Part shown: positions 1 to 7,441 of the stretch, piece by piece
Layout: each line of letters begins with the position of its first letter
Position numbering within the stretch: the stretch's first letter is position 1
From: a virus
Lineage: Duplodnaviria > Heunggongvirae > Uroviricota > Caudoviricetes
DNA: 7,441 bases
Virus record (IMG/VR): IMGVR_UViG_2531839579_000023
Reading direction: 5' to 3' (one strand)
The notes under the pieces: model-generated
Seen by the model: only the letters and a program-made list of their open reading frames with translations
Told to the model about the DNA's origin: nothing
Database searches by the model: none
Made by a program: the position numbers and the translations under genes

Positions 1-219
1 AATTCATAGATATTTTTTACCATCCTATGGATTTTTGGGCGTTTTCTAAGTTTTTTCAGATGGTTGTATTTTTTCTAAAAACTCCTGATCTCGATTTTGC
101 TGTTTGTCTGAGACCTTTTTATGTCCCATATATGCCCCAAGGTGCCCCATGTAAATCCAATTCAACTCAAAGCATCCCTGTTCAATATTTTTACAAGGGG
201 CTTGCATATCAGTGTTTTT

Positions 220-786
220 TTATTGCGTAACGTCAAACGCTCGGATTGAGCGTAAATCATCAAGATTATTCAGCTCTTCCTTCATCTCCCGCTGACGACG
301 ATAAATCTCGTCATTGCGATCGGCCTGTGCCCGTGCCATTACTGCCGCAAGTTCTTCCAGTTCCTGCATCGTCAGGAGGATTGGCGTATTCTCTCCATCT
401 CCCCAAACAATTGTTTCTCTGCCAGCTCCTGATTTCGCCGCCATTACCACTGGTAAGAGGCGGGACAGCGAAACCGGACCAGCATTCCATTTGTGACCTT
501 TCCATTCCAGCATGAACGACATGGACTCCTGTTCCTGACGCCATACTTCGATCTCACACACTTTAGCCTCTTTTTCTGCGGCAATAAGTTCAGGCGTAAC
601 GGTAAACCGGGCTATTCCGCCCCACTTCCCGCTTTGCAGTTCCTGCCAGACCTGTTTACCCATTTCCGCAACATCATTCTCAACAGCGGTATAAGGTAGA
701 TGTACCTCCTGCCCCTCCAAAAGCACTTCACAATATACAGCACCATCCTCCAGAAACATGGCATTTCTTATATTTTTTATCTGCAT
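220..786 (-). CDS. Putative tail fibre assembly / chaperone protein (Tfa-position ORF, 188 aa)
   Basis: Uninterrupted 188-codon ORF (MQIKNIRNAMFLEDG...RSIRAFDVTQ). Its ATG (784-786) lies 6 nt after the stf-like stop (793-795) on the same strand, the usual fibre/chaperone arrangement. It does not resemble lambda Tfa as I recall it, so the function is inferred from position and size only. Confidence 0.45.
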   Translation of the reverse strand: MQIKNIRNAMFLEDGAVYCEVLLEGQEVHLPYTAVENDVAEMGKQVWQELQSGKWGGIARFTVTPELIAAEKEAKVCEIEVWRQEQESMSFMLEWKGHKWNAGPVSLSRLLPVVMAAKSGAGRETIVWGDGENTPILLTMQELEELAAVMARAQADRNDEIYRRQREMKEELNNLDDLRSIRAFDVTQ

Positions 787-792
787 ACTCTG

Positions 793-2688
793 TCACCCGA
801 CCCGCACAAATAATCCTATATACGCTTCCTTTCCGTTGGTGGTATAAAGACCATCTCCCCCCAGAGACTGATACACTCCGGGAAATGCCGATGTATTCGT
901 TCTGCCAATGACAAACGTTGCCTCCCCTTTCATTGTGCCTGCTCCTGTCACGCCTCCCACTACTATTTCCACCGGCGCAAGTGCTTTTCCCGGGCATGGT
1001 TGTCCACGACTCAGGCGCATTAAAACTCCACCTTCCGCTACTCCCAAAAAAGCTGCCATAACCACACTGCCGATATCCGGTTTCGGCGAACTGATACTTC
1101 TTAAAAATTCATCCTTTGATAATTTGCTCTGAGCCTCATCCATTACCACTTTGACCGCTTTTGGGGTTGCCGCCAGTGACTCGGAAGTGCTGTTTGTCGC
1201 ACTACTGAGTTGTACTATCCCTTTCTGTGCTGTCGTTGCATTCTGTGCGGTGTATTTCCCGTTAGCCAGGTCATACGCGGCCTTAACTGCTTTTGGCGTT
1301 GCCGCCAGGTCGAGTCTGTTGTCGCACTCTGAGTGTACTATCCCCTTTTTCGTCGTGCTCGCATCCTCAAGCGCCACGGCGATGCAATATCCTCTGCCCG
1401 TTTTGCGCTGTCTCGCGCGCGTTGCTGCGATTCGCCGTACTTTGCTCTGGCTGCGCCGTCGCACTACCAGCGCCTCGTCGCCTTCGTGGATGCCGTCGTG
1501 GCGCTGCCCTTCGCTGCTGACGCCTGTTGGTCGCCTCATCTTTTGAAGCAGACGCCGATGATGCCGATGACGCCGCCGAACTGGCGGACGATGCGGCAGC
1601 CGTTTTTGAGGATTCTGCACGGGTTTCCGACGCTTTCGCGTTCGTTTCGGATGTCTTCGCTGCGGAAGCAGACCTCGCTGCTGCGCTGGCCTGTTCAGTG
1701 GCTTCGCCAGCCTTCGTTGTGGCTGTTGAAGCAGACGATGCGGCACTTTCTGCCGACTTTCCGGCAGCGGTGGCACTGGCTGAGGCCTGCCCGGCACTTG
1801 TTGATGCGGCACTGGCAGATGATGCAGCCGCTGTTTTTGAGCCTGCCGCAGCTGAGGCGCTCTGTCCCGCTGCCGTTTCAGAAGACCTGGCGTTCGTCTC
1901 GGACGTTTTTGCCGCCTTCGCGGAATTTCCTGCCGCCGTTGCCGAGGAAGCGGCACTACTGGCGCTTGATGATGCGTTCGTTTCTGATGATTTCGCTGCC
2001 TCTTTTGAGGCCGCCGCATCCCGGGCTGAGGTGGCGCTTCTGACGCTTCGTGGTCGCGGGGATGCAGAAGTGGCTGCGATTTTGTGACGCTGCGCATTCG
2101 TTTCTGACGTTTTCGCCGCACGGCACTGGTAGCGCCGCGCTTTTTGAGGACTCTGCAGCGCAGCACTTTTGATGCTTCAGGCTTTGTTGATGCCGTTCCG
2201 CGCTGGAAGAGCCTGAGCCGACGCGCGGCCTGCCGGCTGAGTGCTGGCGCCGGCTGAGCCTGAGCATCAGTCGCATGGGTTGCCGCCTCACGGCGATGTG
2301 CGGCATCCTGGCTGACTTCTTGCGGCTGCCGTGTTCTGTGCCACCCGGACGCGTTACGCGCCACTCTTCCACCATCAGTCAAACGGCGCAGTGCCTCGGA
2401 CGGCATCATCCTCCGTCATGGCACCGAGAAAATCATTCAGCGTACCGGTCGGATCTTCATACACGTGATGGTCCCGGCATGTGACGGCGGGAACCTCCAC
2501 CAACAGAATAACGCTGTACTGCCGTACTCAACGTCCATGCTGTAACGCCCGGCTTCATCCGGATTTTCTGAGGCCAGCGTGTTCACCACCACCGTGGTGC
2601 TGTTACGTTTTGCTTTCAGCTGGATTGTGCAGTTCTGTACCGGTTTTCCTGTGCCGTCTTTCAGTACACCTGAAATCTTTACTGCCAT
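793..2688 (-). pseudogene. stf: Side tail fibre protein Stf-like, frame-disrupted as given
   Basis: N-terminus from ATG 2686-2688 reads MAVKISGVLKDGTGKPVQNCTIQLKA...NPDEAGRYSMDVEYG, near-identical to recalled lambda Stf (orf-401); the ORF track starts 2 codons earlier at a GTG (2694). My manual translation of 1527-2087 in a third minus frame gives the lambda-like Ala/Ser/Thr-rich shaft (...ATSARDAAASKEAAKSSETNASSS...AAKTSETNARSSETAA...). The C-terminal part is in the frame of the 793-2409 ORF (...IAVALEDASTTKKGIV...LAATPKAVK...). The N-terminal frame hits a stop at 2437-2439 and the lambda-like text moves between frames, so no single frame encodes the protein. Confidence 0.8.
1153..1345 (-). 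repeat. Tandem ~132-bp direct repeat inside stf encoding a ~44-aa tail-fibre repeat motif
   Basis: Two adjacent copies: plus-strand core 1174-1215 and 1306-1338, flanked by the shared cttttggNgttgccgccag. Copy 1 encodes TAQKGIVQLSSATNSTSESLAATPKAVK; copy 2 is a shortened version. The motif matches the tail-fibre repeat known from lambda Stf and Rac StfR-type fibres. Confidence 0.7.
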
Positions 2689-2699
2689 ATTCACCCCAC

Positions 2700-2727
2700 A
2701 AAAAAGCCCGCCTGAACCGGCGGGCTG
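2700..2727 (-). terminator. Rho-independent terminator downstream of lom
   Basis: On the minus strand: 8-bp GC-rich stem agcccgcc/ggcgggct (plus 2706-2713 and 2720-2727), 6-nt loop, then a run of seven T (plus-strand A run 2699-2705). It sits 26 nt after the lom stop and 10 nt before the stf ATG. Confidence 0.65.
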
Positions 2728-2753
2728 TCATAACACTGTGTTACCTGGCTAAT

Positions 2754-3343
2754 CAGAATTTATAACCGACACCCACGATGAAACCGTCAGTGCGCCAGTC
2801 ACCACTGCCGGAGCCTTCATAAGCAATATCAATGGCCACGGATTCGGTCGGGTTAAACTGCACGCCAGCCCCCCACGCCAGAGACGTGTTGCTGTGGCGA
2901 CCGTCATCACTTCCGGTCAGCACATCGTGCTTTTCCCCTTGTTGTCAGTTACGCGAGATAATCCCCGGAGAAAGTCGACACACGGCTGTAAGCCACACCC
3001 GCCATCGCATACGCGCTGAACCATTCATTCACGCGCACAGACGGCCCGCCATCACGCTGAACCAGCGGTTACGCACGGAATCTCATGCCAGCGGGTATCG
3101 CTGTATGCGTTTTTTGCTCATCTCAGCTTGGCATAACTGAAGACGTAATCAGCCCCAGCGGTCCGTAAACTCATAACGGTATTTCACGTTAATCCCGTTC
3201 AGATTATCGCTGCCGGGAGCGTTCGTACGGGCATGAAGATACCCTGCGCTCAGTGTGGCCTGCTGCTCAGACGCCCATGCAGGCGCACCGGATACGGCCA
3301 GACAGATGGCTGCGGACAAAATGGCTGCACAAACTTTACGCAT
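2754..3343 (-). pseudogene. lom: Lom outer-membrane protein (Ail/Lom family), frame-disrupted as given
   Basis: Start ORF 3149-3343 reads MRKVCAAILSAAICLAVSGAPAWASEQQATLSAGYLHARTNAPGSDNLNGINVKYRYEFTD, near-identical to recalled lambda Lom with a cleavable signal peptide. Manual translation of the 3' end gives ...HDVLTGSDDGRHSNTSLAWGAGVQFNPTESVAIDIAYEGSGSGDWRTDGFIVGVGYKF, stop at 2754-2756. Between about 2935 and 3170 the Lom text continues only by switching frame several times. SD gagagg lies 6 nt upstream of the ATG. Confidence 0.85.
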
Positions 3344-3367
3344 AATTACCTCTCGCTTTTCTGCAAT

Positions 3368-3391
3368 AAAAAAGGCGCCATTTCTGGCGCC
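3368..3391 (-). terminator. Hairpin plus T-run between J and lom (terminator-like)
   Basis: On the minus strand: ggcgcc agaaat ggcgcc followed by tttttt (plus 3386-3391 and 3374-3379 stems, A run 3368-3373). It lies 20 nt after the J stop and 24 nt before the lom ATG. Confidence 0.55.
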
Positions 3392-3410
3392 CGTATATGG
3401 GTTATAAAAT

Positions 3411-4850
3411 TCAGCTGATACTGATGCCTGCGGTGGCTTTCTTCATCACCACAACCAGCAAATCGCTGATACTTGCTGTGGGATACCAGTCATTTACCAG
3501 CCATGATGACACCGAAAACTCCAGCGTCATGTGGCCGCGACCAGCTGGCATATCAATAACACCACTGTAAATCAGCGTATTATCCAGCGCGGTACGGTTA
3601 TAAATTTCAGCACCGTTTTTCCGTACTATCAGGCGGCATGACGAATAAATATCGTTATTCTCCCTCTCATGTTTAGCGCCGCTGAATGCCACCGCCGGAA
3701 TAACAATCTGCCGGTCAAACGGCTGATCGTCATAAACCCTGACGGTGATGGTCCCTGATGGCCACCGTTCCGGTGCACGGGAGTCCCGGGGGAAAGCTTT
3801 GCCCACTGTTTTAACGAGATCGCCTTCAATCTGGTTGGCGGACAGTTTTCCCAGAACCCGACAGTTCTCGTTAATCGTGACGTTGTTGAGCGTCCCGGAG
3901 TTCGCATTCACGTTACCGCTGATATCGGCATTTTTCGCCGTCAGCCGCCCGTCCGGTGTCAGGGAAAATGCCGGAGGATTACCGCCGCTGGTAATGGTCG
4001 GAGCCGTCAGGCGTTTCAGGAACACGTCGTTCATGAATATCTGATCGCCCTGACCAACAAACATTGGTCTTGTGTTGCCATTAGACGGATCAATAAACGC
4101 GATACGGTTAGCGGCAACCAGGAACTGGCTCAGCTTGCCTTCTTCCGTGTCCTCCATGCTGAGGCCAATACCCGCGACATAATGTTTGCCGTCTTTGGTC
4201 TGCTCAATTTTGACAGCCCACATGGCATTCCACTTATCGTTGGCGTCCTTCCACTCTTTCGAAAACTCCTCCAGTCTGCTGGCGTTATCCTCCGTCAGCT
4301 CGACTTTTTCCAGCAGCTCCTTGCCGAGATGGGATTCGGTTATCTTGCCTTTGAAAAAATCCAGGTAACCTTCCGCATCATCGCTCGCCCGACCGACGGC
4401 CTCCACGAATGCCGATTTGCCAACGGTGTTCACACTGCGGATATAAAAGTAATAATCATGGCCCGGTTTGATATTGATACTGGCAGCTATCCAGTACAGC
4501 GCCGAGCCAAGATAGCGGGCTGCGGTTTCAACCTGCCTGATATCCGCAATCCGCTTTTCCGAGAACCAGAACTCAAACTGTACCGTCGGATCATAAACCG
4601 CAAGATGCGGCGTGGCGGTTATCTGAAAATACCCCGGTGTCAGCTCAATCTGCGACGGCGCTGCCGGTGCGGCAATCCGGAACGATACCGATGCCGGATC
4701 GCCCTGCTGCCCCCACGCATTTACTGCCCGGACTGTCAGCCTGTAGTTCCCCAGCGCCAGTTGTGTGAAGCGGTATGTGGTTTCCGCCGTCCGGGCTGTG
4801 CTGACCAGCCGCTCACTGCCGTCATCCGCTGCCACGGTCAGGCGAAGCAT
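3411..4850 (-). CDS. J: Tail-tip host-specificity protein J, C-terminal 479 codons (uninterrupted portion)
   Basis: ORF reads ...[61 protein letters not shown]...[33 protein letters not shown]..., near-identical to recalled lambda J over roughly 330 aa, then a diverged last ~150 aa. The listed Met is internal; this is the 3' part of a longer gene whose upstream part is frame-broken. Confidence 0.9.
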
Positions 4851-6727
4851 GAACTCACGCCCTTCACCACCTTCGGCGTTCCCAGCGGCCAGACCTGATA
4901 CTCCCCGCTGTCTGCGGTGACTTCGCGGTCAGTGCTGCACGCTGGCGGCGTGACACCATTACCGTGCCGCTCTGGTCGCCGTCAAAGTGCGCCCCGTTAT
5001 CCACGATGGCTCTTTTTCCGGTACATGCTGCACGGCGGTGATGGCATACGTGCCGTCTCGTTCTCACGGATACTCACGCAGCGGAACAGGCGCTGGCGCA
5101 CGTCGGCAGCTTCAGCCCCCAACGCTGTATCGCAACGCCGTCAGGAACACGGCTCACTTTACCTTCACGCCGTCGGTGACGGACTGACCTCCACGCTGAC
5201 CGGATCCCTCCGTCAACCAGGCTTATCAGCGTGGTCCGGAGATGGCAGCGTGATTTCACGGTCGAGCGTCAGCGTCCGGGTCTGGCTGTTACCGCCAGCA
5301 CGCGCCCCGGTGCGATACCGCATAGTCATCATCGCAGATTTCAATGACATCCCCGGTACATGGCGAAGCCCTTCGCACCCACGCTGAAGTCCACGGTCTG
5401 CGTTTCCAGCAGTTCGTTTTAATCAGCCACAGCCCGGCGCGGTGGCCTGCCCCCGGCTGGTACAGCCAAAGCATCCATCTTCGTGACGTTACGACCGTAA
5501 CGGGCAATGGCCTGCGTTCTCACAAGCTCTGTCGCCGTCTCCCAGCCGTTATCGGGTCAATCCAGTTCACCTCAACGGCATTATGGCGGTCTTCAGGGCG
5601 CTGAACTGTAGCGGAACGGCGCCCATCATCCGGCATCACCACATTACTGCGGTTATAGGCCACACCTTATCGAGGTCGGTCCTGCACGAACGTCAGCTCT
5701 GCCCGTTCCATACCGGCATACAGCGCATCGCGAGCAGAAATCACTGAGCACATCCCACGCTTCGCTGGTGGTCAGAGCATTACAGGTGATGCGCGGCTCC
5801 GTGCCGCCAAACCGTCCGGCACGACTGGTCGCAGTACTGGCCGATAATACAGCGCCCATTTTCCACATCGCCGCACCAAGACGTTTCCCCATGCCGTAGC
5901 GGGATGGGTCAGCATATCCCACAGACACCAGGCCATGTTTTGCTGTATGCTGGCTTAAACGTTCCGTCCCAGATACCGCTGTATTGCCGGTCTGCGGGTT
6001 ATAGTTCGACGGCACCTGCAGAATACGCCCGCGCAGATGATAATTACGGCTCACCTGCTGGCTGCCGAACTGCTCCGATCCACCTGACGCCGACCAGTGC
6101 CGTGTTCGGGTAGCACTGTTTCACATCGATATTTCGGTGTATGACGACCAGAGCGTTTTGTTCTGCAGCTGGTCTGTGGTGCTGTCCGGCGTCATCTGCG
6201 CATCCGGATATTAAACGGGCGCGGCGGCAGGTTATCCACCACCACCGAGGCCAGATACTGGAGTGGTTTTGCCCTTAATGGTGATGTCTTTTTCCGTCAC
6301 CCAGCCACCTTACGTGTATCTGAACCAGCAGGCGACTTCCGACGGATTCCGTCCCCCTTTGAGGTGGTTTCCACCAGTGCCTGCACACCGAAGGTAAAGC
6401 GCAGACGGTCGATGTTTGCCGACGTGATGGTCCGGGTATCGGCGTGTCTATTTCACTTCCGTACCCAGACCGTCTCGGACCGAGATTCAAATCCCTCCGG
6501 CGGTGTCTGTCCTGCTCACCTGCCCGGAACACCACCGTGACACCGAGATGTTGTATTCCCCTCACTGTCCAGCACCGGGTACTGTTCAGCAGCACGCTTT
6601 TTAATCCATCCACCGGACCTTCAACCGGCCCTTCGCTGATGGCATCGATCACACTCAGCAACTGCGTGGACTTCAGGTTGTCCTTCGCTTCGCGCGGGGT
6701 ATGCCCCTTACTGCTGCCTTTACCCAT
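4851..6727 (-). pseudogene. J: Tail-tip host-specificity protein J, N-terminal ~two-thirds, multiply frame-disrupted as given
   Basis: ATG at 6725-6727 with SD ggag 8 nt upstream; first 50 aa MGKGSSKGHTPREAKDNLKSTQLLSVIDAISEGPVEGPVDGLKSVLLNST match lambda J. Lambda-J-like text then continues in pieces on different frames (6275-6727, 5653-6054 QVSRNYHLRGRILQVPSNYNPQT..., 5289-5507 ...HRAGLWLIKT...GDVIEICDDDYA, 5074-5259 ...TALISLVDG...KVSRVPDGVA, 4864-5067 ...AIVDNGAHFDGDQSGTV), with stops between them. Confidence 0.8.
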
Positions 6728-6749
6728 TCGTCATGCTCCATAAACGACA

Positions 6750-6769
6750 AAACCGCCCGGAGGCGGTTT
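6750..6769 (-). other. Perfect 8-bp stem / 4-nt loop hairpin in the I-J intergenic spacer
   Basis: Plus strand aaaccgcc cgga ggcggttt (6750-6757, loop 6758-6761, 6762-6769). On the minus strand it is followed by tgtcgtttatggagc and the J ATG. The structure is seen directly; its function is unknown. Confidence 0.5.
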
Positions 6770-6787
6770 CACATAAAACATTTTGCA

Positions 6788-7441
6788 TCAGCGACCAATC
6801 ACCACAACCTGACCACCATCCCCTTCGTCTGCCGTGCTGATCTCCTGAGAAACCACACGTGACCCCACGCGCATTTCACCGTACAGAACAGGCAGAACAT
6901 TGCCCTGGGCAACCATGTTATCCAGTGAGGAGAAATAGGTGTTCTGTTTGCCGTTATCCGTTGTCTGTGTACGGGGAGTTCTGGCTTTCGGTGCCAGCAT
7001 CTGCGCCACACCACCGAGCACCATACTGGCACCGAGAGAAAACAGGATGCCGGTCATACCACCGGCCCCAATGGCTGCCCCCCATGCTGCAAGGGTGGCT
7101 CCGGCGGTAAAGAATGATCCGGCAATGGCGGCAGCCCCCAGGACAATCTGGAATACGCCACCTGACTTGGCCCCGGCGACTCTGGGAACAATATGAATCA
7201 CAGCGCCATCAGGCAGAGTCTCATGTAACTGCGCCGTTAACCCGGACGTGCTGACGTCCCGCCCGGCAATCCGTACCTGATACCAGCCGTCGCTCAGTTT
7301 CTGACGAAACACCGGGAGCTGTGTGGCCAGTGCGCGGATGGCTTCAGCCCCCGTTTTCACACGAAGGTCGATGCGGCGGCCAAATCGTTGCAAATCCCCG
7401 TAAAGGCAGATGCGCGCCATGCCCGGTGACGCCAGAGGGAG
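6788..7441 (-). CDS. I: Tail assembly protein I (gpI), 5' end beyond window
   Basis: ORF reads MARICLYGDLQRFGRRIDLRVKTGAEAIRALATQLP...GEMRVGSRVVSQEISTADEGDGGQVVVIGR, near-identical to recalled lambda gpI (223 aa). Lambda gpI has about 13 more N-terminal residues, so the true start is probably just past position 7441. Stop at 6788-6790. Confidence 0.9.
   Translation of the reverse strand, partial: LPLASPGMARICLYGDLQRFGRRIDLRVKTGAEAIRALATQLPVFRQKLSDGWYQVRIAGRDVSTSGLTAQLHETLPDGAVIHIVPRVAGAKSGGVFQIVLGAAAIAGSFFTAGATLAAWGAAIGAGGMTGILFSLGASMVLGGVAQMLAPKARTPRTQTTDNGKQNTYFSSLDNMVAQGNVLPVLYGEMRVGSRVVSQEISTADEGDGGQVVVIGR

Follow-up and report, generated by a model that had tools for sequence, protein, structure and literature searches.

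Why do the tail genes J, lom and stf of a lambda-type prophage hop between all reading frames in some blocks of a public record, while the blocks between them read without interruption? The question is raised by a stretch of 7,441 bp from the IMG/VR virus record IMGVR_UViG_2531839579_000023, here called the window, which is an exact substring of the whole-genome shotgun contig AQBU01000187.1 (48,075 bp, GCA_000358575.2) of Escherichia coli P0305293.11. A first-pass annotation, made from the letters of the window, had described this alternation and attributed it to low-quality sequence. Our analysis points towards another kind of record damage. With a probability of about 0.93, the lesions are a collapsed-repeat consensus artefact of a 2013-era draft assembly and not biology. 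This reading is based on the location of the lesions at inter-copy variants, the chimeric composition of the clean blocks, the clean unique flank and the position at a contig end.

The window is the repeat-containing end of the draft contig, which stops only 2 bp further on, and corresponds to positions 3726-11167 on the reverse complement of L085, our locus from the source contig that starts at the contig end. In a collection of about 15 billion proteins, AQBU01000187.1 was the sole carrier contig of the frameshifted N-terminal J fragment of 150 amino acids. The GenBank protein ENG44205.1 (E. coli P0305293.11) is identical to the truncated J open reading frame (ORF) of 479 amino acids, so the lesions belong to the deposited record. 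The closest relatives are chromosomes of enterotoxigenic E. coli (ETEC) with the prophage beside ydfJ, which show 96.6% identity across 97% of the window. As reference for this resident prophage, referred to as copy A, the chromosome of ETEC E1779 was used (L002, NZ_LR883006.1).

Deletion-only blocks in J, lom and stf

According to the ORF list of the window, none of the three minus-strand genes J (tail tip/host specificity, 3411..6727), lom (Ail/Lom outer-membrane protein, 2753..3343) and stf (side tail fibre, 793..2688) has a full-length ORF as deposited. J retains an intact C-terminal ORF of 479 amino acids (3411-4850) with the Pfam domains Ig_J, Phage_Tail_Tip and Ig_GpJ_C. Upstream of it the gene is cut into pieces of at most 150 amino acids, in agreement with the frame hopping noticed earlier. 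PF06316 was recognized on both lom fragments, and PF08400 (phage_tail_N) as well as PF03406 on fragments of stf.

When aligned with L002 by MAFFT, the window showed 99 gaps, and its broken blocks were free of insertions. The only two insertions relative to L002 (9 and 21 bp) are both located in a divergent stretch of gpI. Events were counted in a second alignment, scored to favour gaps over mismatches. It yielded 141 unpaired deletion events with a total of 157 bases, nearly all of them of one base, and 133 of the 141 fall within four blocks. In this alignment the blocks are almost pure subsequences of the natural sequence, with true substitutions against copy A being nearly nil. Outside the blocks no unpaired deletions occurred except for alignment noise in the divergent gpI region 7001-7441. 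This confinement to blocks is real and far exceeds what chance would give. Alignment to L002 thus bears out the alternation of clean and indel-riddled blocks and the mostly deletion-type damage.

Broken block 1, in the C-terminal half of stf, extends over 1308-1526 (alternative end 1476) and holds 17 deletion events and 0 insertions. Block 2, in the N-terminal half of the same gene, covers 2035-2521 with 35 deletion events. Between the two, about 490 bp of stf (1527-2034) are free of indels. Of the three blocks originally proposed, the pattern as such stands, but the one drawn through stf as a unit (1300-2525) has to be split. Block 3, in the middle of lom (2930-3160), shows 8 single-base deletions. 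Block 4 comprises the N-terminal two thirds of J (4853-6578, alternative start 4879), where 73 events dropped about 79 bases, again with 0 insertions; J spans 3317 nt in the window compared to 3396 nt in intact relatives. The GC content of the broken blocks is high (0.56-0.66).

Putting the dropped columns back restores all three genes to the lengths found in intact relatives at the same site: 652 amino acids for stf, 199 for lom and, after return of 79 bases, 1131 for J. The J repair includes 8 single dropped columns in 4853-4935, identified in a four-way alignment. No stop codon and no other lesion is left in the repaired genes.

These findings bear on the proposal that the lesions are real, that is, that the window stems from a decayed cryptic prophage with many frameshifts in J, lom and stf. 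In its favour, degradation is common among cryptic lambdoid prophages at the ydfJ site, K, L and tape-measure genes of the E1779 relative carry pseudogene flags, and a natural stf frameshift exists in lambda PaPa. Decay would, however, have to account for about 140 deletions that are accompanied neither by insertions or stop codons nor by notable substitutions. The lesions are also not common to the related strains searched, and in close relatives with the same prophage J, lom and stf are intact. For the J block (4850-6600) no identity above 95.5% was obtained by BLAST among 5426 complete E. coli genomes. An exact 53-mer across 3 deletions gave 0 matches in the GTDB and IMG/VR collections, and the lesions were absent from the other contigs of the protein collection. 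In addition, the lesions target wobble positions and inter-copy variable sites, as detailed below. Natural decay is therefore considered highly improbable, and in this respect the earlier preference for record damage stands.

Some properties of the broken genes are noted separately. A direct repeat of about 130 bp occurs in stf (window 1157-1345), with a unit beginning CCGCTTTTGG.GTTGCCGCCAGTGACTCGGAAGT.CTGTTTGTCGCACT.CTGAGTTGTACTATCCC near 1157 and again near 1288; broken block 1 begins inside the second copy. More than one frame is open across the alanine-rich and GC-rich repeat region, with the consequence that gene callers output a plausible but false protein from the damaged record. The frame-hopped stf (window 793-2409 (-), L085 5038-6651) still gives an ORF of 537/538 amino acids matching PF03406 (Phage_fiber_2). 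For J, the GenBank name of ENG44205.1 (window 3411-4850 (-)), 'fibronectin type-III family protein', is misleading because of the very probably artefactual truncation.

Positions of the lost bases

The J block occurs with a median of 3 copies per E. coli genome. Sister ETEC genomes with copy A at ydfJ also carry two more lambdoid prophages, B and C. Copy B is represented by L084 in E1779 and L097 in strain 602354, copy C by L096 in strain 602354. To define the sites varying among the copies, the A copy, L097 and L096 were all taken from a single sister complete genome, that of strain 602354 (CP025847). In this genome copies A, B and C lie at about 4375384-4382945, 3890943-3903769 and 3432338-3448819, respectively. 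These A/B/C-variable sites hold 127 of the 141 deletion events overall. Within the blocks, deletion affected 130 of the 227 variable sites compared to 13 of the 2,688 invariant ones (odds ratio 276, p ~3e-146). The coincidence amounts to 70 of 73 events in J block 4 (odds ratio 1144, p 1.5e-99) and 34 of 35 in stf block 2 (odds ratio 1133, p 1.6e-43). For stf block 1 it is 10 of 17, with all 17 variable in a sample of 80 related loci, and for lom block 3 it is 6 of 8, with all 8 variable in the population. With a single exception, the 133 events within the blocks occupy sites at which one or more natural alleles vary. The lost bases mark positions of allelic difference.

Four-way alignments of positions 5581-5760 and 4790-4990 placed each dropped base at or beside an A/B/C-variable column, and the stretch 4790-4990 is a pure subsequence of copy B. 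Hardly any A/B/C-variable site survived in the core of the J block. The second chromosomal prophage (L084/L097) explains 62% of the events, and 90% are explained after adding the third (L096). A two-copy model with the E1779 'plasmid 2' (L003) as second copy was rejected, as it accounts for just 15 sites.

The deleted bases are distributed over C (21), T (19), G (17) and A (15). Among them 41% lie in a run of at least two, compared to 41% for the block background, and the run-length distributions match. The codon position could be assigned unambiguously for 75 deletions, of which 61 (81%) occupy position 3, while positions 1 and 2 account for 10 and 4, respectively (binomial p 1.7e-17). Of the ambiguous deletions, 51 of 52 include a position 3. 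Measured against 80 related J loci from IMG/VR, one-base deletions coincide with polymorphic sites in 123 of 124 cases (99%), in comparison to 39% of all block positions. The enrichment in codon position and polymorphism rejects random error.

The same numbers decide on the cause suggested by the first-pass annotation, namely that the base caller lost bases by GC compressions or undercalled homopolymers. The restriction to deletions, their confinement to blocks, their size of mostly one base and the GC-rich composition of the blocks would all suit such an origin. The proposed losses in short runs (gg to g and similar) are, however, no more frequent than the background. Run lengths and base composition of the deleted sites reject a homopolymer or GC-compression cause. 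Neither wobble positions nor polymorphism in the population can be known to a base caller, and base-calling error is consequently rejected as well. Real long-read errors, as seen in a related record, mix insertions and deletions and lie mostly in or beside short runs. Furthermore, the unique chromosome next to the window on the ydfJ side (ydfJ, ydfI, ydfZ; 3,000 bp) shows 1 substitution and 0 gaps compared to E1779, which indicates that read quality is not the problem. The sequencing programme (GSCID/IGS, ETEC from Bangladesh) reported Illumina HiSeq2000 100-bp paired reads at >200x and the use of Celera Assembler (PMC4462620, PMC5469772), a combination that does not produce compressions or short-run indels. 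The chance that poor reads caused the lesions is practically negligible. The earlier suspicion of damage to the record holds, its attribution to the reads does not.

The strain is linked to the project by way of PMC4309559 rather than by an explicit table entry. That paper describes P0305293.1 as an ETEC isolate from Bangladesh, 2011, sequenced at GSCID; judged by the isolate name, P0305293.1 and P0305293.11 come from one patient.

A mosaic of copies and its possible origin

The clean blocks follow individual copies exactly or nearly so, with 0-2 mismatches per 100 bp. Block 1-1300 corresponds to copy A (1-1307 are 100% identical to L002), as does block 2526-2925 (2526-2929 are 100% identical to L002). 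Block 3176-3900, with the 5' end of lom and the 3' end of J, belongs to copy B, with 0 substitutions against L084 in each 100-bp bin of 3201-3900 and with 21 B-only sites and no A-only site. In 3901-4450 the sequence is exactly copy A (75 A-only sites, 0 substitutions against L002), copies B and C being diverged by 10-30% there. Block 4451-4850 is again copy B, with 0 substitutions against L084 in 4501-4800; its variable sites comprise 10 B-only, 16 shared by B and C without A, 11 shared by A and B without C, and 0 A-only. Copy A is found once more in 6601-7000, including the 3' end of gene I (6788-7000), and 6960-7441 is copy C, 100% identical to the third prophage in sister ETEC genomes. Gene I changes from copy A to copy C at 7001.

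The indel-free part of stf between blocks 1 and 2 (1527-2034) shows mixed alleles, with 7 sites following B/C, 5 following A and 7 a further natural allele. Among the 5426 genomes no 100% natural match was found for 1530-2034; the best matches reach 99.6% and come from unrelated strains. This part may be a chimera made of the majority base at each site, or it may stem from a fourth copy that is not in the sample. The A/B/C combination of the clean blocks is absent from the complete genomes, and the best match over 3200-4850 is 97.3%. In summary, the layout is that of a collapsed repeat, with a consensus that switches copies, clean unique DNA alongside and a contig end directly adjoining the region.

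The mosaic also bears on a biological origin, in which some unknown process removes mismatched bases in a heteroduplex between co-resident prophages during ectopic recombination, so that the deletions would be real. In a milder form the deletions would be artefactual and the prophage a genuine three-way A/B/C recombinant. The heteroduplex process is the only biological reading that would explain lesions located exactly at inter-copy variable sites. We nevertheless consider this explanation, in both forms, extremely improbable.

The favoured collapsed-repeat consensus could have arisen as follows. The source ETEC lineage would carry at least three lambda-like prophages, whose I-J-lom-stf modules share 90-100% identity, depending on the block. 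The assembler would run from the unique chromosome (ydfJ) into the resident prophage, copy A, and would then pool reads or unitigs of copies B and C with those of A. Wherever a single copy dominated, the consensus would be exactly A, B or C. Wherever copies were pooled, only columns in agreement would be kept, and differing columns would be dropped. With the variable columns being mostly synonymous third-codon sites, the outcome would be an otherwise perfect sequence that hops between frames because of scattered losses of one base. The assembly would halt soon after the change to copy C. The scheme presumes that copies A, B and C of the sister genomes are also present in the source strain and that some step of Celera Assembler turned disputed columns into gaps.

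Several points weigh against this explanation. The artefact was inferred and not seen in reads, copies A, B and C were taken from sister complete genomes and not from the source strain, and P0305293.11 is unnamed in the main text of both method papers (PMC4462620, PMC5469772). Of the 141 deletions, 14 (~10%) are outside A/B/C-variable sites, and 97 of the 227 variable sites inside the blocks were kept; the distribution of the latter suggests a concentration at block edges and in lom. Moreover, the clean stretches at about 2538-2937 and 3330-3929 differ by 2-8% between the copies yet lost no columns, which means that local divergence alone does not explain which blocks break. Probably the unitig structure rather than local divergence determined which stretches were pooled, but this unitig-level cause for the choice of blocks is assumed.

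The same collapsed repeat could also have lost its columns by another route, if ambiguity codes (N, R, Y) had been set at disputed columns and stripped before deposit. Such stripping would fit deletions exactly at disputed columns with one per column, the exclusive use of A, C, G and T in the window, and the near-complete loss of variable sites from the core of the J block. On the other hand, neither the record nor the papers mention such a step, and the variable sites that were kept inside the blocks have a definite base. The lesions are already present in the GenBank record and its protein annotation, so the stripping would have to predate the deposit. This route is judged unlikely.

Under the favoured explanation, a consensus that omitted disputed columns, the lesions carry no biological significance or novelty, and their significance is practical. 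The record resembles a heavily decayed prophage, whereas its genes are almost certainly intact, and gene fragments of the damaged record such as ENG44205.1 are already in protein databases. The programme's papers report 208 sequenced ETEC isolates (PMC4462620) and 94 (PMC5469772), all assembled with Celera Assembler. Multi-copy prophage regions in those assemblies may hold the same false pseudogenes and chimeric alleles, and such errors would distort pseudogene counts, prophage typing and the calling of receptor-binding alleles. The combination of deletion-only lesions, lack of run bias, codon-3 bias and inter-copy coincidence provides a reusable test that separates this artefact from base-calling error and from decay.

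Gene content, related records and known systems

On the minus strand the window contains, in order, the 3' end of K, I, J, lom, stf, a DUF4376 gene in the tfa position and a DinI-like remnant at the prophage end. The order I-J-lom-stf on one strand, followed by the tail-fibre assembly position, was confirmed by annotations of near-identical loci and by the gene calls of the source contig. GpJ Ig and tail-tip, Ail_Lom and phage_tail_N domains were detected with Pfam in window products and intact relatives. The 3' end of K (C40 peptidase, 7357..7441, -) is assigned by the annotation of L096. The tail assembly gene I (6788..7360, -) is intact, with PF06805 in relatives. The DUF4376 protein (220..786, -) is an intact ORF of 188 amino acids with PF14301, and the exact protein recurs at the ydfJ site across many independent assemblies. 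The DinI-like gene remnant (60..149, +) lies by ydfJ and is lesion-free; it follows from the RefSeq annotation of the identical E1779 stretch (L002 3060-3149).

Some related records are noteworthy in themselves. In L002 10478-13562 (NZ_LR883006.1), in a part of the prophage upstream of the window's extent, the annotation gives frameshifts in K (C40 peptidase) and in the tape-measure gene and an internal stop in L; K and L are intact at the ydfJ site in other assemblies. This may reflect either a genuine defect of the E1779 prophage or residual errors of the PacBio assembly. In L086 (DADDSL010000010.1) and L094 (DAJXXU010000022.1), at about 5895-10567, lysis, bor and terminase genes replace J-lom before the ydfJ-side DUF4376 gene. 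L086 has these genes upstream of a 652-amino-acid stf, while L094 has just an ORF of 75 amino acids before DUF4376. The arrangement points to a prophage variant that arose by deletion or rearrangement, or else to a mis-join in the drafts.

The E1779 'plasmid 2' (L003, NZ_LR883007.1) is a PacBio-derived circular record of 46,243 bp, in which PGAP flags J, lom, stf and K as frameshifted within 1-7407. We judge this record, deposited as a plasmid, to be a lambdoid phage genome, from its 46-kb size and tail module. Counted against the chromosomal copy it has 12 indels, which have the appearance of leftover long-read errors and not of real pseudogenes.

Among known systems, the K-I-J-lom-stf-tfa module of lambda shares gene order, strand and domains (Lambda_tail_I, GpJ, Ail_Lom, phage_tail_N) with the window, and DNA identity to several lambdoid coliphages is 93-94%. 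In contrast to lambda, the tfa position holds the DUF4376 protein, and J, lom and stf are frameshifted as deposited and intact after restoration of the columns. Lambda PaPa carries a single real natural frameshift in stf. The side tail fibre gene is likewise disrupted in the window, but by 52 deletion events, all but a few at inter-copy variable sites. Similar to the window, 'plasmid 2' presents a frameshifted J-lom-stf in a public record. Its 12 indels, however, include insertions as well as deletions and lie mostly within or next to short runs, compared to about 140 in the window, which are all deletions and show no run bias. A further known system is that of collapsed repeats in short-read assemblies, with which the window has in common the lesions in multi-copy DNA at a contig end, the clean unique flank and the switching of copies. 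We found no published description of an assembler deleting disputed columns outright. Whereas the usual collapsed repeat gives a majority base or a contig break, the disputed columns of the window were deleted altogether, mimicking multiply frameshifted pseudogenes.

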